Source of the DNA: a virus
Length of the DNA: 64,000 nt
Strand: one strand, 5' to 3'
Virus record (IMG/VR): IMGVR_UViG_3300032291_002856
Span: 4,079-68,078 of that record
Shown here: positions 8,488 through 49,933 of the stretch, one piece after another
How the letters are laid out: every line of letters begins with the position of its first letter
Numbering within the stretch: position 1 is the first letter of the stretch
Notes under the pieces: model-generated
What the model saw: only the letters and a program-made list of their open reading frames with translations
What the model was told of the DNA's origin: nothing
The model's database searches: none
Translations under genes and position numbers: made by a program

Positions 8488-8500
8488 AAATTTTTCCTTC

Positions 8501-9304: not shown

Positions 9305-9366
9305 GCTGCTACCGCCTTTTACATTTTTAAATATGCCAAGATTTTATTTTTCCACCGAGTAGTGGT

Positions 9367-30369: not shown

Positions 30370-30378
30370 TTTTTCTCC

Positions 30379-32659: not shown

Positions 32660-35600
32660 TTAAGGTACAACTACTCCAGACGCGGATGTCTCTGGTGTAC
32701 TAGACACTACAATCTTTCCGTCATTAAGCACAATAACTCGTAAACCGTCTTTTCCATCATAAGTTCCTTTATACAAATCAAGTCCTGAAGGCAAGCCTCC
32801 ATTTGGATTATTTGGATCCTTAGGGTTTGAAGTAAAGTTACTTCTTGCTGATGCTGCAACTGCTTCCATAAATTTTGTATACCTGTCGCCTTTTTCGTCA
32901 GGATACAACATTTTTGCAGCTCTCATAGCACCATCCATTGCAATCGTCATAGCAGCTTCAGGTCCTGCAATTTTTTTACCACTTGCATCTTCAACTTCAA
33001 CACCGCTGTTATATGCAATAGTGGCCGCCGCGTTTGAAGTGCTTAATTCCATAATTGCGTTTAATCCGGGCGCTATTGACAAGGGTACTTGAGCTGCTAT
33101 TTCGGTAGCTGCTCGAGCAAAAGAAGTAACCATGTCTGTCCTAGATTGCTCAAATTTTATATAAGCTTCTTCGTACTGAGTCTTCATGCTTATTGCAAGA
33201 TCTTCAATAGATCGTTTTGCACCTGCAGAAGCGCTTTCGACACCAATCAGTAACTGTTTCCATTGCTGGTCGGATCCTTCAAACCAATCGTCTTGTAAAT
33301 CTCTAAGAGCGTTGATGGTGCGAGTAGCTGCATCCATTGCATCTTTGTTGTCTCGCAATGCTTTTTCGTTTTCTGCTATCGATTGTCCTATAGCTTGCTG
33401 TGCTACTGGATCACCGCTAGCTTTTTTCATATCTTCCTGAAGTTTCTGTCCACTCAGAACTAAGCCTGACCGTTGAAGCCTGAGACCTTCAAGATTTTTT
33501 TCTTGTTGTTTAATACCGGAAGCTCTTCTTATTCTTTCTCTAGTTCGATCATCCACCCACTGGTAGCCTTTAAGTGCTCTGTCTGGGTTATCATTTAACT
33601 CTATAAATTCATTCTCGGCTGCTGTTCTTTCCTCTGGAGAAAGGCTCTTGTCTTTTGATCTTGCCAATGCTGCTTCTTTTCGTATGTTCCTTGCTGGAAT
33701 TATTTTTGTTTTCCAAAACTCCTCGTATTCGTCAGAATTTGCAGGACCTTTAGTTTCAAGTTCTTTAAACAGATCTTGCATTTCTGTATCGGCTTTGCCA
33801 GTTTTAGTCTCTAAGTAGCCTTTTATGTTGAACTGAGCAAGATGCTCGACTTGAGCTCTTTCCTCTTTGTCTTTTGCGTTTATAGCCTGTCTTTGGTCTT
33901 CTGGAAGTTCTGCAACATTAATTGCTTCTTGCGTGGTTGCTTCGCTCATCCTCTTGTTAACTTCAGCCTGAGACGCCAAAACCATCATTTGATTTACGTA
34001 TCCTCGGTGAATCCCGATTAAGCTGTTCATCCCACTTCGATTTATGTCTTCAATAGATCTCGCGTTTTGTCTAGCCATGTCTTGCATTTGCCAATTTTGC
34101 TGCATTCCTCTTTGAGCCAACTGCGTCGAAGCCCCCGTAGCCATGTTGTATACTTGCAGCAGTTCGCTCTCTTTGAACTGAGACATAAAATCAGGGTTTC
34201 TCATGAAATCTTCAACAAAACTAAGAGTACCTCTGGGTCCTTGTGTGTAACCGTATGTAGTCGTCTGCCCGTTGGTTGAAGGCCTTGTCTGCATACCTGG
34301 CAAAATTTGGTATTGCATAGCAAGTTGCTTAAAGTCGATTCCAGTCAGCTGCATTAAATTGTCTATTGCAAATCTTGGATTACCTTGACCCATGTTCATC
34401 ATAATTGTTCTTGCGTTATCTCCGGCTGCTGCTATAGCATCGGTGAAGTTTCGGAATGTGGATTTGAATTGAACATCAAATGAGTAAGCAGAGGAAGCCA
34501 GTTGCTCAAAAGCTTGAGCTGAGTTTTTCAACTTATCTATATTTTGCTGCGTTGTTGTTCTTAGCTGCTCTATTGCTGCTTCATTGCCGCTATCCGAAGC
34601 ATCAATCTCAAAACCGGATACAAAAGCCAAAGCTTTGTCTACATCTGAATACTCTGGAATAGTCGTTTCGGCTTCCCCTGCTGTACCTGTGTTGACAGAA
34701 GACGGCATTTTAGGAGGAATGTACATTTCAGCCATTGTTTTTCCTAAGCCGGTAAACGAAAGAAGTGCTGCATTCGATGTTAAACCTACGTACAAAGACT
34801 CACGTAACTTTGTACTTTCATCCATAAGCGCATCAGAATACTTTTTGGATTCCTCAAAATACGTACTTCTGTTTTGATTCTCAGGCAGACTTGCTTGTGC
34901 AATAGCTGCATTTATATAAGCTGTGTCGTTTTCTTTAAGAGCTCTTACCACTTCTTGATGAGTTGTGGGCCTTAATTCAGTTTGAGGAACAGCCTCAACC
35001 TTTACTTTTGGTCTCAGTGTGAGTGGATCGAGCTCTTGAACGCCTGTTTCGGGATTTATTACTGGAACGCTCTTTAGTAAAGTTTCTCCAGTTGGGACTT
35101 CAATTAACTCACCCTTTTTAGCTAGAAAATCAATTGCTTCGATAGTGCGCTTATCCGCAATCACGTTGTAAGTCAATATGGATTCATTGGCAGTCTTTGC
35201 AGTCTCTGGACCGTAAAATACTTCACCTGCCGCAATAGCCTGGTCACCTTTTAGTTTGCCCATTGACTGACGCGCTAATGCTTGAGCAGTACGCTCTGTC
35301 AAACTGACTGTTTTAGAAGGGTCATCTAAACTCGGAACTCTCATAGCAAGAGCTGTTTGTTGCGTTTCTGTAAGAGTTGAAGCATTTGTTGACAATTGAT
35401 CCATGTACATCTGCTGAGCGCCGTAGTACGTCTTACTAAACTCTGTAGTCGCTGCAGCAATTTCTTCTTCTAATTGAGCACCGAATTGGCCAGTAAATTT
35501 AATGATTTCTTTTCTGTCAAACGTACCCGCAATTATATCTTCGATGTCTTGGTTATTTACTAAATTTTCAGGATTCTTTGCGCGAGCTGGAGCGTTCTTT

Positions 35601-38600
35601 AGCATCTCGTTATTGTATTTTTCTGCTGCCTGCTCAACCATTGTTCTGCGAATTTGCGGTGCGTACAGAGTTTCTAAGTCTTCCCGCTTCATCTGCACTT
35701 CTGTCTCTTTTAATATTTCTTGCCTTTGCTCAACGCTTGTATCCGAGTCAAATGCCGCACGGTTTAAGCTCATTCCTTTATATGCACCGTATGCGCCGCC
35801 AATTAAAGCGCCACCTGCTATACCATACGGACCGGCAATAGTCCCTATTGCCGCTCCTGCTCCCGCACCTAGTATAATTGAGGGCAACAACCCAGCAATA
35901 TTGCTTCCGTTCATTCCGTACTTTTTAGTAAAGACGGCATCTATGGCTTGCTGTGTTGGCTGCAACGTAGCACCGTAGCCCATTGAGGCAGCAAATTGAT
36001 TGACGGCTCCAATACCTTGGTCAGCCGCGCTTTGACCAAGAGCTCGATACCGATCCAAAGCTGCTTTTCCTTCAGCAGTTAAGTTGTCATAACCTCCGAA
36101 GTCGTTATACTCGACTTTGCCTTCAGCAAGAAGTTTAGCAGCTAAATCGTACTCTTCTCCAGTTTCCTTGTCACGGACAAGGGCCCTAACTAGAGGTCTT
36201 CCGTATTTCGCGTCTTCTCCGTATCCACCAAAGATTCTAATTTCTTTGTTCGGGTCTGCTTTTATGGCTTCTATTTCTTTCTTTACAGCAAGACCTTCAG
36301 CGGAACCTTTTTCCGGAGCGTCGATTCCTAAAAACCTACCTCTTACCTCAAGTCCATCTTCAAGATTCATGTTAAAGGTATCGCCGTCCAAAACTTCTAA
36401 ATTCTTTACTAGAATTTCTTGGTCGTCTTTATTTATTAACGCTTTATTTGCGTCGTCTAATTGATCTTTTAACATTTCTGGAGTAGTGTTTAACGACCCT
36501 AACTGCACTCTTGAAGTGACAAACTGCTGATAACCTGCGTAGTCAGTCTGCTCTGATATTGTCTGCCTAATTGCGCTTTCTTGAGTTATACCTGTAAGCA
36601 TTTTTGCCCTAACATCGGCTTTAAATGAGTCTTGTTCTTCCGGCGTCATCTGATTTAATCTTTTGTACAAGGTTGCATTAACATTTTGACCGGTGCTTTC
36701 CTCAATTAATTTGTTTTCCTTGACCATCGCTTCATTTGCATTTGCAAGCATTGCGTCAAGATCTTGCATAAAAGTTGCAGAGTTGAGGTCAAGATCCTTT
36801 ATAACTTTTCTACCGTGTGCAGCTTGAGTAAGTACAGAGTCTCCTCGCTTAGCAACTCTTTCTTTTAGAACTGTGTCGGTTGTATCACGCCTTGAAGTTT
36901 CAGCCATAGTCGAGTCTTCACCGACAAAGTAATTAAGAATTGGTTCTAGGGCGCCTACTGCAATTTTACTAAAGCTTAATTGAGCTGCTTCGAGCCTGCC
37001 CAACATTTTGTCATATTTAGTTGCCATAGAAGCCGCTTGATCTTCAATCAAACGGTCAGTCAAGCCCATTCCGCTAAGAAGAGCGTCAAGGCTGTCAAGC
37101 ATTTCTGTAGCGTCGCCTTGTTTAATGTTTGAAAGCGCCGATCTGCTAATTTCAAATCTTCTCGACAAAGAAGACATGTTACCCGAAAGAAATTCTCTAA
37201 TTGCTATTTGCGCGCCTTCGGTGCCCTGAGCAGGGTCGAACGCAGCTAATTTACGGGCGACGTTAAACGTTTTGTTAATGTCGACGCCGTAAGAATTTGC
37301 TAAAGGAATGAATCCGGTAACTTGTCCAATATTCTTAGTCAACGTACCGCCAAACAGCTTTTGCTGAGTAAGCGCGGCCTGCATGGCGTTTCCGTAAGTT
37401 TCGGGACTAAGCGCTAAAGTTCTGGCACTGATCATTGTCTTTTCAGCATTTAATGCGGGTCTCACTGCTTGATCGATTGCGTCCATTATCGCGGTCGGTG
37501 CGTTAAACGCGGCTGTTGCCCAGTAATTAATCTGTTGTGCTTTTTGCGTAAAATGCGAAAATCTACTAGCCAAGGTTGATTGATTTCTTGCAGATTTTTC
37601 CTCATTAAGTGTTTTCTGCATTGCAGTCAACTCTGCAGTAGTGAGGTCTACTCCAGGTCCCCTATCTGCTTCTCTAGTAACGCGATTAAGGATTCTTTGT
37701 CTTCTATTGACATCAGTTATTCCTTTCTTATCTAAAGCAGCGTTAGTAGCGTCTATTCTTCTTTGATATTCAGAATCGCCTCCTGACAACTTCTTTTGTG
37801 TGTATGCTAGGTCTGCAGCAGAAGCAGTTCGTAAGTCTCTTCGTACTTCTTTTCCAAGAAAATTGACACCGTATGCTTGTAGGTTTCCAGCAAGAGAGTT
37901 ATAAAGAAGTCCTCCTTTTCCTCCGGTAATTTCGTTTGCATAGCCTTTCAACAATCCTCTTCTTGTTATGTCTTGTCCGAATGTATAACCAAACAAGGAC
38001 TGTTGAGTAGTGTTTGCTTGTAATCCTTCACGGAGTGCCGAAAGCCGACGATTAGTTTCCTTCTCTACATCTTTTGCGGCTCGGTCTTGTTCTTCGCCTG
38101 CAAAACCTGCAAGAACACCGACTTTTGCAGCTGCTGCTCTGACTTTTGCTGCGCGTTCGATTTCTTCTGAAGTTTTAGTTGTGTCATTTTGAGTAGCTTC
38201 GGCTGCCTTGTCCAATGCTACCAAAGCGTTTTGCAATCGACTTAAATCTGTAGCTAAGTCAGCAATATTTTTTCCCGGCGCGTCAAGGCTACTGAAAATA
38301 GCTTGAATGTCGTCGGCTTCTTGCCCGTATCCTCCCTTGTTTGCAGTTTGCAGCAACTCTTTAAAACTATCGTTGTTGTCAATAATTGATTTAGTCGTTG
38401 TTTGAGCAATACCGGTAAGTTCTCTTTTACTTACTCCGACACCCGCACCACCAAGAGAACCCATATTTTGTTCGTATGCATTTCTTGCTGCTCTTAATTG
38501 CTGCACTGCCAGCAAACGGTCGGCGCCGAAATTACGGGCACCACCTTCACCGAACTCGCCGCCAACTCCAAATGGAAGGCCGCCGCCTCCACCACCACCG

Positions 38601-41600
38601 AAACCACCACCTGCACCAGGAATAGCCAAGCCTGGGAACATGCCAAAGAAGCCTGCTCCGGCGCCAGCAGCTGGCGTAGTCGCTGCAGTTCCTGTTGTTG
38701 CAGAACCTGTTTTATATATTGGGCCGAATGGTCCTATTCCTACTAATGTTCGTCCAGCGACTATCGAAGCCGGAGTAGTTGAAGGAGCAGACGCAGCAGC
38801 AACCACTGCCGCATGAAGTGCCGTTCCTGAAACACCTGAGGCACCTGAAGCAGGAGCTGCGTGAGCTCCTGTAGCAGAACCGCTTCCAGAAACTGCCAAA
38901 CCAGCTGCAACAATATTTACTGGGGATCCTGTTGCTGTTACTGTATTTGCGGTAATGTTTACTGGAGAACCTGTGGCTGTTACAGTAGTTCCTGAACCTT
39001 CTCTTCTTCTGCCTGTCTTTCTTCCACCTCTTCGTCGTCCGCCTTCTTCGCCACCGTCTTCATCATCAGAAGGTGGAGAACCTCCACCGCCACCGCCTCC
39101 GCCTGAACCGCCAGAGCCTGATCCAGACCCCTTTGATCCCTTTCCGGAATCAACGGCGTAAATGTCTTCTCCTTTTTCAAACCGAGCAAGCAATTTTGAT
39201 TTTTCAGCTCTTTGCGCGTCGGACAAAATTTCTTCTGGGTAGGTAAGGAGTTCTTCAATTTCGTCACGTCGTTGTGCTTTTTGCCATTCTGGATTATACG
39301 GTCGTTTATTTTTTAACAAACGGTCTCGTATTTTTTGAGCCCTTGCTTGCCGAGATGCTGTTTCTTCAGCTGTCATAGGACCCATATCAGAAAAAAGTTT
39401 TTTCTGTATGGCTGTTTCTACAATATCAGTCGCCATTCGCATTCCTGCACCTGGATCTGACTCAGGTGAGTAGTTGCGAAGTTCTGCTAAATTAATGTAG
39501 TCTTTCGGTTGTCTGTCTAATCTGTAACCTTTTGGAGTTTGTACAGTTCGAGGAATGTCTCGTTGCCGTGGTACGTTGACTCTTGCAAGCAACATAGCAC
39601 GTTCTTCTGGATCTGTAATACTCTTGCTGTCCATCCAGTCTGTAACTGACTTAACGGCTTTAGCATACTCTGGATTTTCTTCTTTTGAAAGCAGACTGTA
39701 AGCCCTTTTTCGCATTGCATCGCTTACAGGTCTGCCAGTTCGAGCAGCTCTTTCGTCAAGACGACGGTCAATCTCTTTTCTTCTAGCTACAAGTGCTGGA
39801 TTCTCCATCACTGCGCGAGAAGTATCAGCAAACATTGCTTCAGGGTGAACCTTATAATATTGTCTTCTTTCTCTTTCGGCTACTCTTGCTTCTGTTTCAG
39901 GCTGCCTTATTTTACTTTCTACTGACTTTGTTTTTCTTCTGCTTTCTCTGCTTGCCGCGAGTTGAGCGTCGTAGTCGTCTATTCTTTTCTGCTCAGCAGC
40001 GCTTATTGGTTTTTCACGTCTCGCCATTATCTTAGCGGGTATGGTAATCTTACTTATAAGCTTTTGCAGATACGCTTCTTTCTTGTCTTCGTCAGTCAAT
40101 CCCTTAATTCGATTTAGCCTTTCTTTCGCCTCCTGCACTGCCGCAAGATATGCAGGATTGTCTACTTCTACTGTTGCAAGAGCTTCGCCTTTTTCTTTTG
40201 CTTTTCTTTCTCTCTCTGCCACAGCTAAATCAGTCTCAGGTCTTCGTTTTTTACTTTCAACCGACTGGCGTTGTTTTCTAGGAACACGAGCGGCAGCGTA
40301 TTTTTCAACATGCTTATCAATTATCTGGCGTTCTCTTTCGCTAATTGCTTCGGTGGCTGGAACAGTAAGCTTAGCAGGAACAGCAATCCGGTCAAGAAGA
40401 TTTTGTAAATAAGCTTCTTTTCGTTCTGGACTAATTCGACCAGCAATTTTTTCTACTCTTTCTTTTGCTTCTGCGACTGCCGCCAAATATTCAGGATTGT
40501 CGGTCTCAACCATCTTTACAGGTTTAGCTGCTTTTGCTGCTTTTTGTTTAGCTTCTCTTGCTGCAATTTTAGCATCAGTTATAAAAGACCTGTCTGCGAG
40601 TCTTTCAGCGGATTCATTTCTTTTTCTTGCAATTCTTGGAGTGTCACGGACTAAAACATTTTTACCAGTTCCCACATCTGGGAACATTCTCCATGTACTT
40701 GTTCCGGATCCCTCATCAACGCCTCCAGTAAGCAAATCTTTAAAGAATTTAGAAGTACTTTCTTTGAATTTTGAAAATCCTGAAATAGGAGGGGCACTTT
40801 GCTTAGGAACAGTAATTTTGCCTATAAGCTTCTGTAAAAACGCATCTTTCTGACTCTCAGTTAATCCAGTAGCTTTGTTTACTTTTTCTCTAGCAGCCTC
40901 GACTGCTGCAAGATATGCGGGATTGTCAATTTCCGGTGTCTGTCTTTCATACGTTGGGACTTGATAACTTGCGCCTTGTTTGCTTGCTGTACGAGCGTCA
41001 AAGGTCAATCCTCTTATGTACTTAAGACGACCTTCAAACTCTTCCTCTCGAATTGCTGCATCTTCACGTCGTCTAGTTACTTCGCGTATTGATCGAATTT
41101 GAGATTCCGCCTCTTGTTCTCTTTTATCACGTCTTTCTTCTGCTATCTTAGCTCGACGAGCAACGGCAGGATTACTCATGTATTGTTTTTCTTCTCTTGC
41201 AGCAACTCTTGCATTTGTTTGTGGCTGTCTTCTTTTGCTTTCTATTGATTTTGCTTTTCTTCGTCTAAGCCGCTCGTTTGCTATTCGCTGATCGTTTTGA
41301 CGTTTTGCGTTTTCGTCCTGTACCGGCCTAAGGGCAGAGTCGAGGTTGTCTTCTCGTATTGATCTTCTTATAGCAGCAATTTTAGCGTCGGCCTCCGCTT
41401 CTCTGTCTTCTCCTATTTTTTCAGCAATTCTTATTCTAGTTCTTTGCTCGTTTTCTGCAATCTGTTGTCTACGTAATTCTCTTTCTTCTGCAATAGTTGC
41501 GGGCTGTTCTCTCTCTGTTGTTTGAAATAAAGGCATTTGTCCAACGTCAACGCCTTCATTTGTAAATCTTCTGTACCCTGCTGAAACGCGTTGTCGAAAT

Positions 41601-44600
41601 AACTGAAATTCTGATAATGGATTATCCTGCCCTACATAGCTAAGTGGCCGTCGTAAAGGGTCAGTGTCAGGAACCGGGCCGGGTAAGTTAAACTGTCGTC
41701 TTGGGCGGTCTCCTTTTCCTGCTTCATAGTCAGCGTGTATACGGTGAAAACGAGCAGCTGCACTTCTTCTACGTTCTCTTAATCGTCGGTTGTTGGCATC
41801 CTCAGCCCTATTTGCGGCATCGGTTGCGTTCCTTATCGGACCAAGTTGATCTTGATATTCCTGTTCTCTTTTTAAACCTACTATGTTAGCAATTCCAATA
41901 TCTGCCTCTTCTTCTCTCCTTGCGCCTCTTTCTTCGGCTACTCTAGCTCGACGTGCGACAGCCGCGTCACTCATGTATGCTTTTTGTTCTCTTTCGGCAA
42001 TCTTTGCGTCTGTTTCTGCTCGTCTTCTTTTACTTTCTATTGACGCTGCTTTTCTTCTGTTAATTCGATCTTCATCTATTTTTTTCTGTCTTTGGTCTTC
42101 TAATTGAATACCTTCAGGAGTTGAAGGTGGTACGACGGCCCCTGCATCGTAATTAGTGTATACAGCTTGAATTTGCTTTCTTCTAATATTTCTACGTCTA
42201 GTAACTAACCCTCTTTGTGCTGCCTCGCTTCTTCGTTTAGCTTCCGCTTCTCTTCTTCGAACTGTTTCCGCTGATTGTCGAGCTGGTTCTTCAGCTGCAA
42301 GTTGTTCTGCTGTTTTAGTGTACTCTTCTTCAGGCTTGTTTGGATCGGGAGCAGGAAGTAAAAATCTTCCGCTTGCTTCCATAAAAAGCCTATTTTGGAC
42401 TTTTTCAACAATTGGGAGAGTGGCGGCATTAGCTTCATTTTCCCTTGCAGCTGCTCTTTCTTGCGTTTCTTTTATTCTTTGCCTACCTCTGGCTATTATT
42501 TGACTCAAGGTAGCAAATTCTGATCTTTTGACACGTTCGTCAGCTATTGCTAATTTTTGAGCTGGATCGGTAATTCCTTCTGCTTCTACTTCTCTTATAG
42601 TTATTTGCTTATCAATTGCGTATCTTCTTCGCTGACGAGCTTCCCAAAGTCGTTTCGCGGTTTCTCTTCTCTCTTCAGTGTTTCTTTCAGCTTTTGGATC
42701 TGACTTAGGAATCGAAGCTACTCCTGGATCAATACCCGCTCCTCCAAAAAGTGAACCGTACTTATTTATATATTCAGGTCTTGTAGGATCACCGTATTGC
42801 GCTCTCATTGCTGTGTCAATTCCGCGCGGAGGATTCTCTCTTTCCAACCAGGCATCGATTAACCTTGCCGGTATTGGGTACTTTGCATCCACATTCCGTT
42901 CCGCGTAGTATTTACGGAGTCTATCCATTAGTTTTTGATTATTGGCTTCGTCTCCAGGTAGTGGCGCATAAACATTTCTTTCTTGCTCTGTAAAAAACAA
43001 AGGATTGCCTTTTTCGTCTCTTCCAAAATCCTCTTGCTCATAAGTTCTGATGTTTCTAGTCAGTCTGTCAAGTATTTTTTTTCTTTGTCTTTTGCTTCTT
43101 TTTTTAGGTTTTGAGTCTAAAGCGGCGTTTATTTCTTTTCTTCTCTGTCTGCGATTTTTGTCTACAGCCTTTTGTCCATTTTCTTGATCCGCTAATCGCT
43201 CGGCCTCTCTTTTTTTATCGATTTCAAGCAGCTGTCTTTCTCTTTCTTGCTCTCTCATTATTTCTAAATCTTTAACTTCTGATTGCACTTTAGGCTCGTC
43301 AAATTCTTGAAATTCTTTTATAAAGTCAGGAATTCCTCTTGCTACGCTTGGATTGATGCCGTAGCTAACTTCTGGAACAGGCATATTTTCTGCTTCTCTT
43401 GCTTCTTGTTTTGCGTCTTTTTCTCTTTGCTTAGCTTCCAGATATTCAGGAGAATTTCTGTATAACGCGTTAATTTGTCTTTTTGTTCTTTTTACTGGTT
43501 TTGCCGCTTCCCACCAAGCTAAAGGCCTGACTCTTCTAGTTAACCTTTTAAAAATCTTATCTCGTCTTCTTTGGTTTGCTTCGCTATTAGATCCAAAATA
43601 ACGACGGCGTTTTCCTTCGGTAGCTTCTTTAAACTCTTTTCTATCTAAAGCCGCGTTGACTTCAGCAATCCTGTCTGCATTTTCTTTGTCTCTTGCAGCA
43701 ATGGCCGCGTTTCTATCTTCTTCTCCCAGCCTTTCTAGAAAAAGTTCTTTTGGATCTTCCTGGCTTTTATCTTTTGCTTCCGCTACAGCTGTATCTCTTT
43801 TCAATAATTGTGCGTTTTCAGTGGCACTTCCAACAAAAAACTCAACGTTTTTATATGGCGTATTTTCAGTCAGCTTTGTAATTTCTTCTCTCGGTTCTAC
43901 GTCGGCAGCCCTTGGATGGCGCATGTGCCTAAGGTACAGTCCTTGCGCTACTGCCCGCATTTGCCGAACTAGATCTCTACCTGCGTTTGTTGTTGTCAAG
44001 CTTTGAACATGTTCAGGATTTTTTGTATCCATTTTTCTAAATTGCTCTGTTTGCTCTGGCGCTAAAACCGAAAATATAGCTTGCATGTCTGATAAAAATT
44101 TAGCGTCTCCTAGAGAAGGATCTCTGCTTGACTGTCTTCCAAAGTCTTTTAGCTTTTGAAGGATTCGCAATTTTCCAATTATTGGTCCAAGGCGACGAGC
44201 TAGTGGCACATCTTCCTCTTTTGCTTGCTGCCTTGCTTCAACAACAGCCTCATTAGGCCTGTCTCTCGTAGCCACGTTAAACATTTCGGCAATTGCAGGG
44301 TTTTCTAAGTATTTATGACCTTTTGTATCAGCCATGAAAGTAGAAATTTGCTCAGCCATCGCTCTGTTTTTTGGATCTTTAGCGGCTGCTTTTAAATAAC
44401 TTTCTACTGATGCCGTGTCACCAAAGTCTGTGTACCTTAGCATGTTTGCCATGCCTGGAGTCACGCCGCCAATAAGTTTTAAAGCTTTTTCCCTAGCTTT
44501 AGGATCTCCTATAGCAGTTGCTAGTAATTGCTTTAATCCTTTGTTGTCTCCTTGAAATTTTTGAAACTTAGCAATTAATTTGTCTAGCGGACTTCTATCG

Positions 44601-47600
44601 GACCGGTCGCGGGGTTTGTCTGACGCAGTAACCATTGCCGCGGCCGGATCGTAGTTTACTGCGTTGTCCTGCCTGTTTCCGGATTGTAGATGCCTCAAAG
44701 GATCTAGTCCAGCAGCTATTTCTGCTTGATATTGAGACCTGCGAATAAGTTCCGCGGTTGTAAGACTTTTTTCAGGCGCTCGCAAAATACGGTCTATTTC
44801 TTCTCTTTGTTCCTCAAGGTTAACATGCTCACCTGCTGAATAAGTTCCCGAACGGTACGTAAATTCTCCTGGTCGTTCTTCTAAAGTAAAATCTCTGTCT
44901 GCTTGCTGTTGTTCAGCTAGCTTGTCACTGATCGATAAATCTTCACGAACGCCTGTATCGACAATCCCTTCTCTTTTGTGTCTTTGTACAACAGAGTCGT
45001 TATACGCTGGAGACGGCATACGGCCTAGTATAGCTTTTGCTAAACTACTTATACGGAATCTCAGTGTCTTGGCCATTGATATAGGGCTGACTGTAGAAGC
45101 TTGGTTGCGTGAGTTTTCTAAGTGATCAGTTGTCCCCATTACCCGCGCAATTCTATCGGCCATTCCTCCAGAAGTGTGCAGTATTGGTAAATTCTGTCTC
45201 AATGCATCAGGAGCACTGACAAGAGTGTCTACTGACGGAACGTCTTCTCCTCCTTCTGCTAAGGCAGGTACTAGAACCGGTCTTAAAAGTTTCGAAAGCA
45301 TTGAAAACTGTCCAAACGAATCCGTGCTTTTAAATTCTTTAGATCTTGATAATGTTCTAACTCTCGCTAACATCCGCTTGCTTAATTTAGAAAGCATTGG
45401 CGACGCAGCTTCCATTTCTAGAGCCAAGGCTCTATTTGGATTTTTAGGGTCGTAGGCATTAGCGTAATCCAAAATAGGGAAACCAGAATACTCGGCTTGC
45501 TCAAGTAGCTGTATACTGGAAAAGAAATTTTTTAATTGACTTAACGGGCTTGGCAGTTCTCGTGCTTTTCTTGGATCTACTTTTCCATCTTTATCTGTAA
45601 TATTGCGTGCTGTTTGCAAGCCTTGAGTAAAATTTTGATACTTGGAACTGCCGCCAATTAAACCAAATCCTGCCAATATACTGTCAGTAAATTTGTATTT
45701 ATTTTGTTTAATTTCCTCGTCTACTTTTAGTTGACTTTCCAGACCGTCATCTAAAGGTAATCCTTCTCGATTATTTTGAGCGATTACTTGCAAAGGTGTA
45801 GGAGAATCAAAAAGCACAGGCATATCAGCTCTTCCAAGACGTCTTAGATAGTTTAATGCCCTGTTCGCCACAGGTCGAACATTTGTCACCATATCGCGAA
45901 ACGAATCACGTCCAAATCCGTAACCAGCAACGCGCGTAATCATTTCTTCAGGATCGTTTTCTATCCCAGTGATACTTGCTTTCGGATTTGCAATCATATC
46001 TGCAGGTACGGGTCTTGTAGGTTGGATAACTACTGAAGAAGGCCCTGCTGGCACATCTTCTTCTTTATAAGGCTCAAAAGAGATTTGCCTTGCTCTTGGA
46101 TTAGTTACTTGTCTTTTTATTCTATCGGGTAAGTCTTTAAAGCTCCATCCTTCTTTAGCTTCCCACGCCGCAATTCCCTCAGGTGTGCTAAAATCAGGCT
46201 TGCTTACCGAGGTTACTCGATACCGTGATCCGGGCAACTCTGGAATTTCTATTATTTGACCAGGTTTATAACCCCCACCAGCTCGAGTCGTAGCTGTTCT
46301 AATTCCTTGTTCAACAAGCTGAGATGTAGTTGTTCCAGTTAGGTATCTAGCTTTTAAATCTTCTCTCAATTGACTCTGAGCCATGCTATACTTCATCGGC
46401 ATTGTTGCGTCTGTTGGTCTAGATCTACCTAAATTAGGATTTAACGCCAGAGCTTGCTTCTGTATATAATTTTCTATATCTTGCGGCGTGTTGCGAACAT
46501 CCTTATCATTTTCATCTCTTTGGAGATACCCATCCGGCATGTGCACATCCGCGTTTAATCCTAAAGCAGCCGCAGCAACAGATCCGGCAATGTCTGTTCC
46601 AGTTTGCCCACCTGACACAATTGTACTTAACTGTGGATACTGAGCTTTGACTATTTTTAAAATATCATAAACGTTTCGATTAACTTGATCTTGAGAAACT
46701 CCCGCTTTTTTCCAAGCCGGCATAGCATTTCCTGAAACATTAAGAGAAGTGGCGCTTGTCGCTTTTAGAGATTCTACTAACCTAGCTGCTATTTGTTCGT
46801 TACTTTGTCCCTCGTCACTTACTAAAACTCCGCCAGCCGCTTTTACAGCCGACGCTGTTTTTCTTTCTCCAGGGGTTGCATGGTCAGCTGCGTAAGACAG
46901 TGTTACTGGAGCGGCCGCAGCGTTTCTCTCTGTCCTGCGCGGATACGATCCCCCAGTGCTTACACTTACCAATCCTCTAGTTGTTGATGGACCTACTTGA
47001 ACTACAGTAGGCTTTTCGTCAAGTTTTGCATATGCTCTTTGTTCAGCTCGAGCAGCAGCTAAAGCTTTGCCAGCTTCTTTTCTGGATTCTGGAGTTCCTG
47101 CTACAGCGTACTCTTCTTCAGCTCTTTTTACTCTTTTTTCTAGATCGTCTTTAACTCTTTGATGAAGAATGCCTGCTAACGATGTCTCACTTTCTTTTCG
47201 AGTAACTCCATCAGGAGTAAACAAATTTTGAAATATTTCTTTTACATTCAATCCCCGCAGCATTCTAATTTGATCTTGTGTAGATGCACCGCTACTTGCT
47301 TGTAGCTTTTCGGCTAAAAACGCAGCAAAAATACCTGCAAATGCATTTTGAGCTGTTGGTCCACCAAACACGCCCAATGATTTACCTTCTCTACCGATGG
47401 CTCCTCTTGCCGTTGTATCTGTAGAAGCTCCTTGTACTAGGGGACCAAACCTTGACAAAGCGGCCATTATAGATCTTGGAATCTTTGATGAAAGATTTGT
47501 TCCGGCTGCTGCAGGGTTTGTGGTCGGACTTACAACTCTACCTGACCTCAAATCTTGAATTGCGTTCTGTAAAATTGAGTCCATTGTCCGAGTAATGTCG

Positions 47601-48712
47601 TAATCAACCCCTTCTTGGAAAAGTTGATCAGTTGCTGCCGACTCCATGTAACCTCGTGATATGTCTTGCCCTACACGTAAGTCTTCGTTAGTTCCTTTCC
47701 CTACTCGAATTCCAAGTCTGGTTTTAACAGAGTCTTTAAATTTTCCCCACGTATTGTGCAAAGACCTTCTTCTCGCTCTGCCAGAAGCCCGTTGTTCAGC
47801 ACCTGCTGTAAGAGAGTCTCCGAATCCTTCACCGTCGTCTCCAGAACCAGGCCTTTCAACATAGTTTACTTTGCCTCCATAACCCATTTCATTTTCAAAA
47901 CCAACGTCAGATAACTGACTTCTCTGAACAACCGGACGAGCAACTGCTTTTCTAACCATCTGTTTGACAGTTCCTAGAACCTGCCTAAACGACTGTATAT
48001 TGCCCATTCTCTTAGTTGCTTGTTGGCCCGCTGCCATGAAACCGTCACCAATATCCGCTACAACAGTAGTCAAAGCTTCTTCAAACGCATCGACTATCGC
48101 ACTCACCGGGCTTCCTGGTTTTATACTCTGAAGTAAACCGGCGCCTCGGTTACTTCCGGCAGCAGTTTGTTTTTGCGCAATTGAGCGGATTAACGCTCTC
48201 ATCTGAGATATTTCTGGCTTAGAAAGTGCGTTAACATCTGAAGTTTCTGTAAGAACGTTCGATCTTTTTGGAGAAGGCCCTTCTCCTTTGTAAAGCCCAA
48301 AAGTATTAGGAGTTGTTATACCATATTGTCCCGGCAAATCAGGTTCTTTTGCGGTTGACGATCTTGATCCTCTAGGAGCAGCTCCAGAAGGTCTTGCGGC
48401 AGTCGTGACAGCGTTTGCTTGCTTCGCTGCATTTGCTTCTTGCTGCATTAAAGCAATACGCTCTTTAATTAACTGATTAAGTCTTTCGTTTGAAGCTATC
48501 GCTTCTTCGACGTCCTCAACACGAATTTGGGCCTGTCGTTCTGATTTTCGACCTATAACTTCTCCGGTTTTGGAGTCTTTTACTGTAGGCTCTAAATCTT
48601 TAGTGTTAATTCCAACACTGTCTAAAAGTTTTTTAGCTTCTGGGACTGTCTGAATAATATCATTCAGCATAGTCAACAAGCTTTCTAACTTAGAAATATA
48701 GCTGTCTGACAT
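32660..48712 (-). CDS. giant (5350 aa) tape measure protein with SLOG-like, ASCH and thermonuclease domains
   Basis: Lies between the tail assembly chaperones and the distal tail gene. It has a TMP core (AAFDPAQGTEGAQIAIREFLSGNMSSLSRRFEI), a glycine-zipper hydrophobic segment and embedded IVSGGQTGTD, GIRTATTR and DGDT...RFLGIDAPE...KYGR motifs. Confidence 0.85.
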   Translation of the reverse strand: MSDSYISKLESLLTMLNDIIQTVPEAKKLLDSVGINTKDLEPTVKDSKTGEVIGRKSERQAQIRVEDVEEAIASNERLNQLIKERIALMQQEANAAKQANAVTTAARPSGAAPRGSRSSTAKEPDLPGQYGITTPNTFGLYKGEGPSPKRSNVLTETSDVNALSKPEISQMRALIRSIAQKQTAAGSNRGAGLLQSIKPGSPVSAIVDAFEEALTTVVADIGDGFMAAGQQATKRMGNIQSFRQVLGTVKQMVRKAVARPVVQRSQLSDVGFENEMGYGGKVNYVERPGSGDDGEGFGDSLTAGAEQRASGRARRRSLHNTWGKFKDSVKTRLGIRVGKGTNEDLRVGQDISRGYMESAATDQLFQEGVDYDITRTMDSILQNAIQDLRSGRVVSPTTNPAAAGTNLSSKIPRSIMAALSRFGPLVQGASTDTTARGAIGREGKSLGVFGGPTAQNAFAGIFAAFLAEKLQASSGASTQDQIRMLRGLNVKEIFQNLFTPDGVTRKESETSLAGILHQRVKDDLEKRVKRAEEEYAVAGTPESRKEAGKALAAARAEQRAYAKLDEKPTVVQVGPSTTRGLVSVSTGGSYPRRTERNAAAAPVTLSYAADHATPGERKTASAVKAAGGVLVSDEGQSNEQIAARLVESLKATSATSLNVSGNAMPAWKKAGVSQDQVNRNVYDILKIVKAQYPQLSTIVSGGQTGTDIAGSVAAAALGLNADVHMPDGYLQRDENDKDVRNTPQDIENYIQKQALALNPNLGRSRPTDATMPMKYSMAQSQLREDLKARYLTGTTTSQLVEQGIRTATTRAGGGYKPGQIIEIPELPGSRYRVTSVSKPDFSTPEGIAAWEAKEGWSFKDLPDRIKRQVTNPRARQISFEPYKEEDVPAGPSSVVIQPTRPVPADMIANPKASITGIENDPEEMITRVAGYGFGRDSFRDMVTNVRPVANRALNYLRRLGRADMPVLFDSPTPLQVIAQNNREGLPLDDGLESQLKVDEEIKQNKYKFTDSILAGFGLIGGSSKYQNFTQGLQTARNITDKDGKVDPRKARELPSPLSQLKNFFSSIQLLEQAEYSGFPILDYANAYDPKNPNRALALEMEAASPMLSKLSKRMLARVRTLSRSKEFKSTDSFGQFSMLSKLLRPVLVPALAEGGEDVPSVDTLVSAPDALRQNLPILHTSGGMADRIARVMGTTDHLENSRNQASTVSPISMAKTLRFRISSLAKAILGRMPSPAYNDSVVQRHKREGIVDTGVREDLSISDKLAEQQQADRDFTLEERPGEFTYRSGTYSAGEHVNLEEQREEIDRILRAPEKSLTTAELIRRSQYQAEIAAGLDPLRHLQSGNRQDNAVNYDPAAAMVTASDKPRDRSDRSPLDKLIAKFQKFQGDNKGLKQLLATAIGDPKAREKALKLIGGVTPGMANMLRYTDFGDTASVESYLKAAAKDPKNRAMAEQISTFMADTKGHKYLENPAIAEMFNVATRDRPNEAVVEARQQAKEEDVPLARRLGPIIGKLRILQKLKDFGRQSSRDPSLGDAKFLSDMQAIFSVLAPEQTEQFRKMDTKNPEHVQSLTTTNAGRDLVRQMRAVAQGLYLRHMRHPRAADVEPREEITKLTENTPYKNVEFFVGSATENAQLLKRDTAVAEAKDKSQEDPKELFLERLGEEDRNAAIAARDKENADRIAEVNAALDRKEFKEATEGKRRRYFGSNSEANQRRRDKIFKRLTRRVRPLAWWEAAKPVKRTKRQINALYRNSPEYLEAKQREKDAKQEAREAENMPVPEVSYGINPSVARGIPDFIKEFQEFDEPKVQSEVKDLEIMREQERERQLLEIDKKREAERLADQENGQKAVDKNRRQRRKEINAALDSKPKKRSKRQRKKILDRLTRNIRTYEQEDFGRDEKGNPLFFTEQERNVYAPLPGDEANNQKLMDRLRKYYAERNVDAKYPIPARLIDAWLERENPPRGIDTAMRAQYGDPTRPEYINKYGSLFGGAGIDPGVASIPKSDPKAERNTEERRETAKRLWEARQRRRYAIDKQITIREVEAEGITDPAQKLAIADERVKRSEFATLSQIIARGRQRIKETQERAAARENEANAATLPIVEKVQNRLFMEASGRFLLPAPDPNKPEEEYTKTAEQLAAEEPARQSAETVRRREAEAKRRSEAAQRGLVTRRRNIRRKQIQAVYTNYDAGAVVPPSTPEGIQLEDQRQKKIDEDRINRRKAASIESKRRRAETDAKIAEREQKAYMSDAAVARRARVAEERGARREEEADIGIANIVGLKREQEYQDQLGPIRNATDAANRAEDANNRRLRERRRSAAARFHRIHADYEAGKGDRPRRQFNLPGPVPDTDPLRRPLSYVGQDNPLSEFQLFRQRVSAGYRRFTNEGVDVGQMPLFQTTEREQPATIAEERELRRQQIAENEQRTRIRIAEKIGEDREAEADAKIAAIRRSIREDNLDSALRPVQDENAKRQNDQRIANERLRRRKAKSIESKRRQPQTNARVAAREEKQYMSNPAVARRAKIAEERRDKREQEAESQIRSIREVTRRREDAAIREEEFEGRLKYIRGLTFDARTASKQGASYQVPTYERQTPEIDNPAYLAAVEAAREKVNKATGLTESQKDAFLQKLIGKITVPKQSAPPISGFSKFKESTSKFFKDLLTGGVDEGSGTSTWRMFPDVGTGKNVLVRDTPRIARKRNESAERLADRSFITDAKIAAREAKQKAAKAAKPVKMVETDNPEYLAAVAEAKERVEKIAGRISPERKEAYLQNLLDRIAVPAKLTVPATEAISERERQIIDKHVEKYAAARVPRKQRQSVESKKRRPETDLAVAERERKAKEKGEALATVEVDNPAYLAAVQEAKERLNRIKGLTDEDKKEAYLQKLISKITIPAKIMARREKPISAAEQKRIDDYDAQLAASRESRRKTKSVESKIRQPETEARVAERERRQYYKVHPEAMFADTSRAVMENPALVARRKEIDRRLDERAARTGRPVSDAMRKRAYSLLSKEENPEYAKAVKSVTDWMDSKSITDPEERAMLLARVNVPRQRDIPRTVQTPKGYRLDRQPKDYINLAELRNYSPESDPGAGMRMATDIVETAIQKKLFSDMGPMTAEETASRQARAQKIRDRLLKNKRPYNPEWQKAQRRDEIEELLTYPEEILSDAQRAEKSKLLARFEKGEDIYAVDSGKGSKGSGSGSGGSGGGGGGGGSPPSDDEDGGEEGGRRRGGRKTGRRREGSGTTVTATGSPVNITANTVTATGSPVNIVAAGLAVSGSGSATGAHAAPASGASGVSGTALHAAVVAAASAPSTTPASIVAGRTLVGIGPFGPIYKTGSATTGTAATTPAAGAGAGFFGMFPGLAIPGAGGGFGGGGGGGLPFGVGGEFGEGGARNFGADRLLAVQQLRAARNAYEQNMGSLGGAGVGVSKRELTGIAQTTTKSIIDNNDSFKELLQTANKGGYGQEADDIQAIFSSLDAPGKNIADLATDLSRLQNALVALDKAAEATQNDTTKTSEEIERAAKVRAAAAKVGVLAGFAGEEQDRAAKDVEKETNRRLSALREGLQANTTQQSLFGYTFGQDITRRGLLKGYANEITGGKGGLLYNSLAGNLQAYGVNFLGKEVRRDLRTASAADLAYTQKKLSGGDSEYQRRIDATNAALDKKGITDVNRRQRILNRVTREADRGPGVDLTTAELTAMQKTLNEEKSARNQSTLASRFSHFTQKAQQINYWATAAFNAPTAIMDAIDQAVRPALNAEKTMISARTLALSPETYGNAMQAALTQQKLFGGTLTKNIGQVTGFIPLANSYGVDINKTFNVARKLAAFDPAQGTEGAQIAIREFLSGNMSSLSRRFEISRSALSNIKQGDATEMLDSLDALLSGMGLTDRLIEDQAASMATKYDKMLGRLEAAQLSFSKIAVGALEPILNYFVGEDSTMAETSRRDTTDTVLKERVAKRGDSVLTQAAHGRKVIKDLDLNSATFMQDLDAMLANANEAMVKENKLIEESTGQNVNATLYKRLNQMTPEEQDSFKADVRAKMLTGITQESAIRQTISEQTDYAGYQQFVTSRVQLGSLNTTPEMLKDQLDDANKALINKDDQEILVKNLEVLDGDTFNMNLEDGLEVRGRFLGIDAPEKGSAEGLAVKKEIEAIKADPNKEIRIFGGYGEDAKYGRPLVRALVRDKETGEEYDLAAKLLAEGKVEYNDFGGYDNLTAEGKAALDRYRALGQSAADQGIGAVNQFAASMGYGATLQPTQQAIDAVFTKKYGMNGSNIAGLLPSIILGAGAGAAIGTIAGPYGIAGGALIGGAYGAYKGMSLNRAAFDSDTSVEQRQEILKETEVQMKREDLETLYAPQIRRTMVEQAAEKYNNEMLKNAPARAKNPENLVNNQDIEDIIAGTFDRKEIIKFTGQFGAQLEEEIAAATTEFSKTYYGAQQMYMDQLSTNASTLTETQQTALAMRVPSLDDPSKTVSLTERTAQALARQSMGKLKGDQAIAAGEVFYGPETAKTANESILTYNVIADKRTIEAIDFLAKKGELIEVPTGETLLKSVPVINPETGVQELDPLTLRPKVKVEAVPQTELRPTTHQEVVRALKENDTAYINAAIAQASLPENQNRSTYFEESKKYSDALMDESTKLRESLYVGLTSNAALLSFTGLGKTMAEMYIPPKMPSSVNTGTAGEAETTIPEYSDVDKALAFVSGFEIDASDSGNEAAIEQLRTTTQQNIDKLKNSAQAFEQLASSAYSFDVQFKSTFRNFTDAIAAAGDNARTIMMNMGQGNPRFAIDNLMQLTGIDFKQLAMQYQILPGMQTRPSTNGQTTTYGYTQGPRGTLSFVEDFMRNPDFMSQFKESELLQVYNMATGASTQLAQRGMQQNWQMQDMARQNARSIEDINRSGMNSLIGIHRGYVNQMMVLASQAEVNKRMSEATTQEAINVAELPEDQRQAINAKDKEERAQVEHLAQFNIKGYLETKTGKADTEMQDLFKELETKGPANSDEYEEFWKTKIIPARNIRKEAALARSKDKSLSPEERTAAENEFIELNDNPDRALKGYQWVDDRTRERIRRASGIKQQEKNLEGLRLQRSGLVLSGQKLQEDMKKASGDPVAQQAIGQSIAENEKALRDNKDAMDAATRTINALRDLQDDWFEGSDQQWKQLLIGVESASAGAKRSIEDLAISMKTQYEEAYIKFEQSRTDMVTSFARAATEIAAQVPLSIAPGLNAIMELSTSNAAATIAYNSGVEVEDASGKKIAGPEAAMTIAMDGAMRAAKMLYPDEKGDRYTKFMEAVAASARSNFTSNPKDPNNPNGGLPSGLDLYKGTYDGKDGLRVIVLNDGKIVVSSTPETSASGVVVP

Positions 48713-48721: not shown

Positions 48722-49120
48722 CTACATAAACATTTCAAAGATTGCAGCTTCTTTTTTAAGATCTGCATCTTCTTGTTCTTTTATTTTCTTTAATTTTCTA
48801 CGAATACTAGCATCAACAGCGTGTTGTTTCGCGCTGACTAAAGCGTTCATTTCTAAATGCGTTAAACGCCCTATCTTTTGGGCGTTTAACGCGGTCATCT
48901 GATGGTCAACTAGAAAATGATCAATCCACATTCCTAGTTCTTGATGACTGTTATTGCAAGTCTTAATCAGATGATGAATCCCCTCCAGACGGCTCAGGCT
49001 CACGTAAGGCGTTGTCCTTGTTGAGTGCCTCGATGTATTTATCGAAAGCATCCTTCGATACTTTTCCAAGCGTCCAAATGTTTTCTGCAAGCTCACGGAC
49101 AACCTCCCCATTCGCGTCAA
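48722..49120 (-). CDS. putative second tail assembly chaperone ORF (GT-like position), start uncertain
   Basis: Overlaps the upstream chaperone in the +1 frame and ends just before the TMP start. An internal Met lies near 48930. Confidence 0.5.
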   Translation of the reverse strand: MTRMGRLSVSLQKTFGRLEKYRRMLSINTSRHSTRTTPYVSLSRLEGIHHLIKTCNNSHQELGMWIDHFLVDHQMTALNAQKIGRLTHLEMNALVSAKQHAVDASIRRKLKKIKEQEDADLKKEAAIFEMFM

Positions 49121-49920: not shown

Positions 49921-49933
49921 TGAAGTAGTTCTC

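Follow-up and report, generated by a model that had tools for sequence, protein, structure and literature searches.

What a phage tail gene coding for 5350 amino acids is for is the question raised by this locus, at which an open reading frame (ORF) at 32660..48712 of the window (the whole stretch of 64,000 nucleotides analysed; all features named below lie, like this ORF, on the minus strand) takes up 23.6% of a 68-kb viral genome. Its source is an uncultured phage known from metagenome runs of freshwater and lake origin. The first-pass annotation had read the product as a tape measure protein (TMP) pointing either to an exceptionally long tail or to a cargo delivered with the DNA, had put it forward as the best candidate for an undescribed system in the window, and had allowed for an assembly join behind its length.

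Integrity of the Giant Gene

The 5350-aa ORF exists as annotated, and an independent contig, G001, keeps the same frame open across 4813 aa. The Gly-rich linker of the gene is moreover bridged by contigs from two further sequencing runs, X2 (record 2, spanning 34464-41412) and X3 (record 7, spanning 34489-40066 and 40143-41231); this run-contig evidence was drawn from runs other than X17-X20, which had small word shares and of which two were RNA-labelled. Comparison with G001 gave dN/dS ratios below 1 (0.03-0.62) in 10 of 11 segments, on both sides of the hinge, while aa 581-760 form a segment free of any substitution. In-frame insertions and deletions amounting to 72 aa net distinguish two variants whose DNA is otherwise 97-98% identical and whose amino-acid identity over the whole alignment is 92%. 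A megablast search of the gene against GenBank phages gave no match. Nothing was found in favour of an artefact of assembly or gene calling by which at least two genes would have been wrongly fused. Gly-rich low-complexity DNA is prone to misjoins, and it is here that short contigs stop or diverge, with loose ends at 38579-38614 in X3; however, the open frame of G001, the two contigs of other runs that cross the hinge, the 28 full-length relatives described below and the dN/dS values below 1 wherever substitutions occur exclude an assembly join, and the artefact can be regarded as already practically refuted.

Position and Identity of the Tape Measure Protein

The gene occupies the TMP locus proposed for it, with a tube/chaperone set on one side and distal tail genes on the other, in an order shared with relatives, the functions of these neighbours being themselves putative. 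Upstream, two tandem paralogues that are 66% identical (49483..50350) are assigned by position as the putative tail tube gene. They are followed by a chaperone-like pair (48722..49385) made up of an ORF with a weak XkdN-like match (48963..49385) and an overlapping ORF in the +1 frame (48722..49120), both of which are kept upstream of the TMP gene in relatives; no slippery site could be assigned for this pair, and an A-run stands at the start of the +1-frame ORF. Downstream lie three putative distal tail or hub genes coding for 156, 586 and 848 aa (27823..32606), which directly follow the TMP gene in relatives too. No family match was obtained for the putative genes of the tube, hub and capsid. 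The gene order, from the putative tube through the chaperone pair and the giant ORF to the three downstream genes, is constant across the relatives' loci, and is the same where the ORF at the TMP position codes for only 1046-1845 aa. No sheath-sized ORF is present upstream of the giant ORF, and we infer a tail that is apparently non-contractile.

Similarity to accepted TMPs was found in a single block, in which aa ~3810-3926 match the annotated TMP of phage D6E (E 2e-11, 37% identity) and the TMPs of four Clostridium phage records (E 8e-6). These matches cover 11-13% of the 870-aa query, and the core has no detectable homology in GenBank phages beyond them; in phiCT453A the matching TMP gene comes after sheath, tube and XkdN-like genes. 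When the core model was compared with BFVD, 22 of the best 50 fold matches were to proteins bearing a tape measure or minor tail name, the TM-scores of the matches to TMPs being very low (0.07-0.27). The general features of a TMP are present as well, namely a glycine-zipper segment and a mainly helical build in the two parts covered by AF2 models (68% helix at aa 3401-4340, pLDDT 63; 58% helix at aa 766-1620, pLDDT 61; both of middling confidence). The tape-measure models of Pfam, NCBIfam and PHROG match no part of the protein, and Pfam is equally silent on the annotated D6E and phiCT453A TMPs to which the block is similar; the identification therefore rests on synteny, on a block of ~100-190 aa and on these general features. 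This silence of the curated models would also fit another kind of internal virion protein, or a polyvalent ejection protein, encoded within the tail cluster, and 37 other giants, mostly free of cysteine, carry a SLOG enzyme domain without this core, so that giant ejected proteins of other kinds do exist. However, the position after tube/chaperone-like genes is shared with the 1046-1845-aa proteins bearing the same block, and this position, the BLAST and fold matches to named TMPs and the helical build with its glycine-zipper segment together make it very unlikely that the protein is something other than a TMP.

A Conserved Core and a Variable Front Half

The same bipartite build was found in 28 giant relatives of 3660-6198 aa. 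Residues 3401-5350 are common to 24-28 of these relatives, except for an island at aa 4341-4620 (34853..35692) that is common to 1 of 28, and residues 1-3400 are common to only 2-6 of them. Among all 29 giants the core measures 1799-2065 aa, compared with 1753-4164 aa for the N-terminal extension, and 27 of them have, upstream of the core, a Gly-rich patch with 17 or more Gly per 100 aa. These data bear out the division at a Gly-rich linker that the first-pass annotation had drawn, and the low-complexity linker that it had seen at nt ~38550-39150 corresponds to a Gly/Ser/Ala-rich hinge with 28-29% Gly (aa 3191-3400; 38513..39142) where the variable part meets the conserved one.

The core opens with a helical conserved part (aa 3401-4095; 36428..38512), delimited by conservation and the AF2 model, which includes the most conserved block of the protein (aa 3740-3935; 36908..37495). 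This block of ~190 aa, to which the matches with annotated TMPs belong, is the only part that the giant shares with the annotated TMPs of cultured phages and with the 1046-1845-aa same-locus proteins of related tail modules; the latter gave no matches to PHROGs or Pfam. It contains F3825-D3826-P3827 at ~nt 37240, in agreement with a recognisable TMP core placed earlier at aa 3825 (nt ~37230). Downstream of a staphylococcal-nuclease (SNase) domain (aa 4096-4235; 36008..36427) lies a glycine-zipper hydrophobic segment (aa 4266-4313; 35774..35917), the only strong membrane-like stretch, where a glycine zipper had been noted at nt ~35780-35890. The conserved C-terminal part (aa 4621-5350; 32663..34852) follows the variable island and is common to 28 of 28 relatives. 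A scan with the core profile of one genome per prokaryote species gave 430 pattern matches, none of which was confirmed as a prophage relative.

The SNase domain inside the core had been overlooked in the earlier annotation. It is recognisable by profile (E 1.1e-13 against the PDB, residues 8-119), by fold (TMt 0.63-0.74) and by invariant residues, and thus combines the OB-fold with the residue set of the SNase family (PF00565): D4109, D4111, T4112, R4126, D4131, E4134 and R4172 are identical in 29 of 29 giants, a set which we take to comprise the Ca-binding and catalytic Asp/Asp/Thr, Arg, Glu and Arg. Judging from these residues, the SNase-fold nuclease of the core looks catalytically active. 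A literature search on tape measure proteins and thermonucleases gave, judging by titles and abstracts, no paper on a TMP-embedded nuclease.

The front half begins with an N-terminal leader of assumed helical character (aa 1-100; 48413..48712) and a Gly/Ser/Ala-rich region without a family match (aa 101-576; 46985..48412), each common to 6 of 28 relatives. Behind the SLOG cassette described below, a small alpha/beta domain (aa 766-885; 46058..46417) recurs in 6 of 28 relatives, and further giant proteins have it too. An ASCH/PUA-like fold considered for this domain was unsupported, the best row (2dp9, probability 0.28, TMt 0.42) being too weak. A mostly helical, lineage-specific region (aa 886-1620; 43853..46057) common to 3 of 28 relatives leads to an E/R/K-rich region (aa 1621-3190; 39143..43852). 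In this region a second optional cassette lies at aa ~1806-1964, aa ~2134-2600 form a mosaic stretch, and aa 2160-3040 include internal repeats that have diverged. The repeats were detected by chunked BLAST; a tandem repeat finder returned two trivial arrays only, because the repeats are too diverged for it. For the model of aa 766-1620, Foldseek gave 0 matches in the PDB at E <= 0.001, and look-ups of aa 766-1620 and aa 1-580 in the protein atlas provided no usable lead. The SLOG domain is the sole recognisable enzyme domain of the 3400-aa front half, most of which is without a known fold. The embedded globular domains noted by the first-pass annotation are present as this cpYpsA SLOG domain (aa ~585-760) and the alpha/beta domain, while its description of ~3200 N-terminal residues as R/E/K-rich holds for aa ~1601-3190 (21-44% E+R+K per 100 aa) but not for the first 1600 aa (13-30%).

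Exchangeable Enzyme Cassettes

The cpYpsA-type SLOG cassette (aa 577-764; 46421..46984) was identified by Pfam, PHROG and invariant residues. Its score of 29.5 bits against PF12694 lies above the cut-off of 26.2 and involves only model positions 1-35 of 145, and the match to phrog_10774 (E 2.7e-29) extends over positions 12-175 of 179. The domain contains the GGQTGxD motif and keeps 18 of the 18 columns that are invariant among 24 stand-alone homologues. Exactly aa 580-765 are missing from the relatives P0002 and P0003, and the domain stands at another position in P0009 and P0015. Similarly, in a contig from run X2 position 46420 is joined in frame to 46985 with 12 letters between, and in one from X5 position 46431 is joined to 46978. 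The SLOG domain is therefore an in-frame cassette that is present or absent among near-identical natural variants, and the earlier idea of a front part acting as an exchangeable payload gains from its absence, its movement and its polymorphism in natural populations.

Other relatives appear to carry other enzymes. Of the 29 giants, 16 show a DEDDh motif triplet, and a profile built from 11 DEDDh regions matches ~190-aa exonuclease chains (E 8e-9). A Pfam search of 14 N-terminal regions found RNase_T in one and NUDIX in one, and precomputed Pfam assignments list PF08719, PF00929 and PF13672, each on single members. Judged by such motifs and profiles, the predicted cargo of relatives is a DEDDh-like exonuclease in many cases and a NUDIX, NADAR or PP2C domain in others, in place of SLOG, and the enzyme domains recur at differing positions within unrelated front halves.

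Absence of Cysteine

None of the 29 giants contains a single cysteine over its whole length, compared with 108 Cys in the 13,981 residues of the 47 other ORFs of the window. The two small cultured-phage TMPs that were checked are also without Cys. Among the other SLOG-bearing giants, 34 of 37 are Cys-free, compared with a content of 0.93% Cys in stand-alone SLOG proteins. The absence of Cys marks the TMPs of this lineage, not the cargo as such, and the front half excludes cysteine as strictly as the core does. The literature search gave no cysteine-free TMP among the matches listed, one of which is a paper on tail-tube disulfides. These observations suggest the absence of Cys as a sequence mark of tail-threaded proteins.

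Discussion

We consider it probable that this TMP is both a ruler and an injection vehicle with exchangeable cargo, comparable to gp96 of Thermus phage P23-45 but loaded with a different cargo. The rear half (aa 3401-5350) would represent a conserved module for tail building and membrane penetration, composed of a helical ruler around the ~190-aa block, the SNase domain, the glycine-zipper membrane segment and the conserved C-terminal part, whereas the front half beyond the Gly-rich hinge would consist of helical, partly E/R/K-rich repeats bearing in-frame enzyme cassettes. The whole protein would run through the tail lumen as a largely extended thread and would set a very long tail. Tail length scales with the TMP at 0.15 nm per residue, and the predicted tail would thus measure ~290 nm if the core alone is the ruler and ~800 nm if the whole protein is. 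Upon infection the TMP would be ejected ahead of the DNA and its core would insert into the envelope, while the N-terminal end, next to the DNA, would exit last and bring the enzymes into the cell. There they would act before phage gene expression, most plausibly on nucleotide-based host defence signalling. Such a target would be consistent with the proposal, made in PMC9503650, that viral YpsA-like SLOG domains degrade cADPR-like defence signals. The stand-alone cpYpsA/YpsA-like SLOG proteins (PF12694; PMC9503650), which are described there and are common in phages, have the same domain, whose invariant residues are kept here; in contrast to them, the copy of the giant is Cys-free and sits inside a predicted virion protein, and its action would therefore precede any phage gene expression.

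The length of the protein could instead be all ruler, with 5350 aa measuring ~0.8 micrometres, a front half grown by repeat expansion and domains that are idle after ejection. The diverged internal repeats of the E/R/K-rich part, the 72-aa net in-frame indels between near-identical variants and the mostly helical build of both modelled pieces would fit such an origin, as would the range of the ORF at this position in the tail-module lineage, from 1046 to >5000 aa, and the extraordinarily long tail that, according to PMC10770324, accompanies the 5,002-residue TMP of P23-45. However, a domain serving as mere filler would not be expected to retain its active-site residues, and here the SLOG domain keeps all of its invariant residues and shows no substitutions relative to G001, the SNase catalytic residues are invariant throughout the giants, and the enzyme domains stand at varied positions in unrelated front halves, so that we regard a pure ruler as decidedly unlikely.

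A processed polyprotein would be cut at or near the hinge, so that a core of ~1950 aa would measure ~290 nm and the front half would be packaged elsewhere or act in the producing cell. Other phages are known to trim their TMPs by proteolysis, and the tight length range of the core compared with that of the extension, together with the nearly universal hinge, would suit a cut at this site. Furthermore, three shorter proteins, P0183 (2327 aa), P0184 (2610 aa) and P0187 (2759 aa), have their initial Met within the architecture of the giants, near the hinge, P0184 matching P0009 from residue 2699; they may be split or shorter forms. Against processing, no protease domain was found in the giant protein, no internal in-frame ATG or GTG preceded by a Shine-Dalgarno-like motif of at least 5 nt occurs inside the gene (a weak test), and the front half is under the same strict exclusion of Cys as the core; we therefore consider this explanation unlikely.

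The reading of the TMP as ruler and vehicle has a worked precedent. According to PMC10770324, gp96 of P23-45 is a TMP with an N-terminal virion RNA polymerase, and was shown to be both ruler and injection vehicle. Like gp96, the giant is a TMP of ~5000 aa that joins an enzyme-bearing N-terminal part to a TMP part with a membrane segment, its gene takes up a large share of a mid-sized genome, and its enzyme is proposed to act as the DNA enters. In contrast to gp96 as described there, the cargo is a SLOG domain (an exonuclease, NUDIX and others in relatives) on an exchangeable cassette, and the core holds an SNase where a metallopeptidase is described for gp96. A virion RNA polymerase of the gp96 type was considered for the giant and rejected, as no D.D.D motif occurs in its 5350 aa and aa 1-1800 have no match in the PDB. 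Because of this precedent, calling the locus an undescribed system was too strong, and to choose between a long tail and a cargo was to pose a false alternative.

A second comparison is offered by the polyvalent proteins of phages and conjugative elements (Iyer et al., 2017; PMC5512222), described in that paper as large, virion-associated multidomain proteins in which unrelated enzymatic domains are combined and shuffled between relatives, and proposed there to be injected with the DNA and to do their work at the very onset of infection. The giant likewise has two domains of unrelated predicted activity, SLOG and SNase, in one polypeptide, and it is encoded among virion genes within the structural module. 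However, the polyvalent carriers treated in that paper are head- or portal-associated (MuF and portal fusions), whereas the carrier here is the TMP itself, and its front half consists mainly of helical repeat, not of enzyme domains in a row; tape measure, SNase and SLOG have 0 occurrences each in the main text of PMC5512222. Our literature searches found no paper on a giant, largest or unusually long tape measure, and nothing relevant on tape measure and SLOG among the matches listed. TMPs of ordinary length, such as that of mycobacteriophage TM4, reportedly bear an embedded lytic motif, an enzymatic domain used during entry. Unlike such TMPs, whose domains attack peptidoglycan, the giant carries domains that would target nucleic acids or nucleotides, and it is 3-5 times longer.

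If the giant is indeed a ruler and vehicle with exchangeable cargo, it would extend the single worked case of an enzyme-TMP fusion, that of P23-45, to a family with exchangeable cargo represented in several freshwater and lake studies, and would link tape measures with polyvalent injected effectors, which are kept apart in the literature searched. It would also provide candidates for enzymes acting before phage gene expression, namely a SLOG domain with a possible role in destroying nucleotide-based defence signals and a family-wide nuclease in the channel-forming part, and it predicts tails among the longest known. More tentatively, and with less than even confidence, the TMP may be a general Cys-free injection platform whose cassettes come, go and change position even between phages that are nearly identical, each variant delivering a different preformed counter-defence enzyme beside the DNA through a tail of 0.6-0.9 micrometres that would rival the longest known. 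Were this so, the exclusion of Cys over thousands of residues would be a signature for spotting ejected phage proteins.

Authenticity and composition of the giant gene

The uninterrupted reading frame at 32660..48712 (-) encodes 5350 aa and takes up 23.6% of the genome, the source viral record being linear, 68,078 bp long and of an estimated completeness of 89%. The first-pass annotation had described it as a bipartite tape measure protein (TMP), with an R/E/K-rich N-terminal region joined by a linker to a TMP core. A Gly-rich stretch (aa 3191-3400, 28-29% Gly), a highly conserved block near aa 3825 and a glycine zipper (aa 4266-4313) were all found where they had been placed, whereas the R/E/K-rich character held for aa ~1601-3190 only, the first 1600 aa being of ordinary composition. 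Diverged internal repeats occupy aa 2160-3040. In the following, aa 1-3400 are called the front half, its Gly-rich end the hinge, and aa 3401-5350 the core.

That so long a frame might result from an assembly join, as the annotation itself had considered, is contradicted by independent data. In G001, a separate viral contig whose copy of the gene is 97-98% identical in DNA, the frame stays open for 4813 codons, up to the contig end; the two genes differ by in-frame indels (72 aa net, all inside aa 2264-2435), and identity falls to 54-73% at aa 2201-2600. The dN/dS relative to G001 was 0.03-0.62 in the 10 segments, out of 11, that had substitutions; the segment with the SLOG domain had none. 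When contigs of four other sequencing runs were aligned to the gene, one of run X2 spanned 34464-41412 and one of X3, from a different study, 34489-40066 and 40143-41231, both crossing the hinge. The 20 runs listed for the hinge surroundings represent 13 studies, and at least a fifth of the sampled words were present in 16 of the runs (X1-X16), mostly labelled freshwater or lake water. Given the open frame in G001, the hinge-crossing contigs and the dN/dS values, an assembly join can practically be ruled out. Inside the E/R/K-rich region lies a mosaic stretch (41412..42312, aa ~2134-2434), where an X2 contig skips 801 nt and has 396 other letters in place, and where G001 is 54-73% identical with in-frame indels between flanks of 97-100% identity.

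Probable tape measure identity and gene neighbourhood

None of the curated TMP models matches the giant protein, and the sources name the giant proteins only by automatic labels such as 'hypothetical protein' or thermonuclease-family endonuclease, never as tape measure. Searched by tblastn against 50,697 GenBank phage records, aa 3401-4270 matched seven, all at genes annotated as tape measure. The matches to annotated TMPs run through aa ~3810-3926 (cultured phage D6E, E 2e-11; Clostridium phages, E 8e-6), and in phiCT453A, also cultured, the matching TMP gene comes after those for the sheath, the tube and an XkdN-like protein. Metagenomic loci that are more distant but keep the flanking genes encode proteins of 1046, 1049, 1067, 1613 and 1845 aa at the TMP position, which have only aa ~3694-3931 in common with the giant protein. 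An AF2 model of aa 3401-4340 (13-row alignment, pLDDT 63) comprised 68% helix and one beta domain, and 22 of its best 50 BFVD fold matches were named tape measure or minor tail protein, at very low TM-scores.

Along the direction of transcription, small ORFs are followed by two paralogues, an XkdN-like ORF, an overlapping ORF in the +1 frame, the giant gene and five further ORFs, and tblastn found these genes, in strongly conserved order, beside the homologous ORF of relatives' loci. Since most neighbouring genes have no Pfam or PHROG match, their roles were inferred from this order. The tandem paralogues (49934..50350 and 49483..49920, both -; ~140 aa, 66% identical) are putative tail tube proteins; in relatives' loci both match a single place, the only one found there, which points to a lineage-specific duplication. 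The 140-aa chaperone-like ORF (48963..49385, -) has a weak XkdN-like match and overlaps the +1-frame ORF (48722..49120, -) by about 160 nt. Both frames and their offset are kept in relatives, resembling G/GT-type frameshift pairs; an A-run occurs at 49125-49130, but a slip site could not be placed. Downstream of the giant gene lie ORFs of 156, 586, 848, 774 and 839 aa, the last with tail-fibre-like matches, and no ORF upstream is large enough for a sheath. We interpret the locus as a tail module of the non-contractile type in which the giant gene occupies the TMP position.

The structural module is flanked by a ribonucleotide reductase gene (57666..59816, +; phrog_367, E 5e-175) and a glycosyltransferase gene (20795..22012, -; phrog_2170, E 1.7e-40). 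Elsewhere in the window, an 874-aa ORF (60489..63113, +) matches the RNaseH-like domain of terminases (E 7e-6) and, below the Pfam cut-off, an intein splicing domain (E 1.7e-5); judged by these matches, it may encode a large terminase subunit into which an intein is inserted. Three tRNA genes (Leu-TAA, Met-CAT, Arg-TCT) lie at 7645..9442 (-).

A conserved core behind exchangeable, putative cargo

A length-restricted homologue search with aa 3420-4420 recovered 28 proteins of 3660-6198 aa, and additional giant ORFs were found in 13 viral and 9 metagenome loci; a search of prokaryote genomes (one per species) found no relatives. In iterative segment-wise searches against the 28 relatives, aa 3401-3700, 3701-3960, 3961-4095, 4621-5000 and 5001-5350 were common to all 28, aa 4096-4235 to 27, aa 4236-4340 to 24 and aa 4341-4620 to one, and each segment within aa 1-3400 was common to 2-6. 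Core length is 1799-2065 aa (median 1936) across the family and extension length 1753-4164 aa (median 2940), and 27 of the 29 giants (this protein and its relatives) have a Gly-rich patch ahead of the core. Three shorter proteins, P0183, P0184 and P0187, have a Met start inside the giant architecture and could be split genes, in which case a separable front half would be favoured. Two metagenome loci (L030 and L031) belong to one 76.6-kb contig, in which the giant gene leaves one end and resumes at the other; this points to a complete genome of about 77 kb that is circular or circularly permuted.

Searched exhaustively, aa 1-1200 gave 750 proteins at E <= 0.001, and among the 150 listed nearly all matches were restricted to aa ~585-760, the SLOG domain, in ~180-aa stand-alone proteins or within proteins of 2000-4800 aa. 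This domain matches phrog_10774 over its full length (E 2.7e-29) and Pfam cpYpsA partially, slightly above the cut-off, and it keeps 18 of the 18 columns invariant among 24 stand-alone homologues, GGQTGxD included. The model of aa 766-885 is a small alpha/beta domain (pLDDT 64-85), which recurs in 6 of the 28 relatives and in other giant proteins and for which a fold search identified no fold; the remainder of aa 886-1620 is modelled as helical with disordered linkers. The relatives P0002 and P0003 align over aa 15-579 and again from aa 765 (P0003: 748) on, lacking exactly the SLOG segment, while in P0009 and P0015 this segment and its neighbouring domain lie some 1900 residues into front halves that are otherwise unrelated. 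In natural populations, the 564 nt between 46420 and 46985 are replaced in frame by 12 others in an X2 contig, and an X5 contig connects 46431 to 46978; near-identical phages are thus polymorphic for the presence of the SLOG cassette. Another stretch, at aa ~1806-1964, is likewise optional. The enzymes differ in other family members: 16 of the 29 giants, this protein not among them, have a DEDDh-type motif triplet, and a profile of 11 such regions matched ~190-aa exonuclease chains (E 8e-9). Pfam searches of 14 front halves gave RNase_T in one and NUDIX in one, precomputed Pfam assignments of single members include NADAR, RNase_T and PP2C, and most front halves received no family assignment.

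A predicted embedded nuclease and the exclusion of cysteine

The core profile matched staphylococcal nuclease (SNase) chains (E 1.1e-13 over residues 8-119), as did the beta domain of the core model (TMt 0.63-0.74), and D4109, D4111, T4112, R4126, D4131, E4134 and R4172 are invariant in all 29 giants. The domain lies about 30 residues upstream of the glycine zipper; the simplest guess for the role of this family-wide SNase next to the membrane segment is an attack on host nucleic acid at entry.

Cysteine is absent from all 29 giants, as compared with 0.77% in the 47 other ORFs of the window (108 per 13,981 residues), and from the small related TMPs and two cultured-phage TMPs checked. Because the exclusion holds for front half and core alike, it suggests, indirectly, that both may share one physical fate, being threaded through a channel that is narrow and a compartment that is oxidising. 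Stand-alone SLOG proteins contain cysteine in 80 of 96 cases (0.93% overall). Among the homologues of aa 1-1200 (P0032-P0172), 37 other giants (2010-4783 aa, with 2000 aa as the lower limit) have a SLOG domain but not this core; 34 of them are cysteine-free, and additional families of ejected virion proteins may be represented here.

At 0.15 nm per residue, the value of textbook helix geometry, a tail measured by the core alone would reach 290 nm and one measured by the entire protein 800 nm. The nearest parallel studied in detail is gp96 of the Thermus phage P23-45. Its N-terminal ~1200 residues are reported to form a virion RNA polymerase that occurs in virions within the full-length 5,002-residue TMP, and the authors propose that it acts at the pore during DNA entry (PMC10770324). 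By analogy, the giant protein would measure a very long tail and bring its N-terminal enzymes in together with the DNA. For viral YpsA-like SLOG domains, degradation of cADPR-type defence signals has been proposed (PMC9503650). The polyvalent-protein concept fits the giant protein in its proposed way of working, and the main text of its source makes no mention of tape measures, SNase or SLOG (PMC5512222). In summary, the initial observation is confirmed and extended and its interpretation partly supported: the protein represents an already described type, in which a TMP carries fused enzymes that, as in the precedent, would be injected. It is a novel form of this type, marked by exchangeable putative cargo, a predicted nuclease embedded family-wide and the strict exclusion of cysteine.
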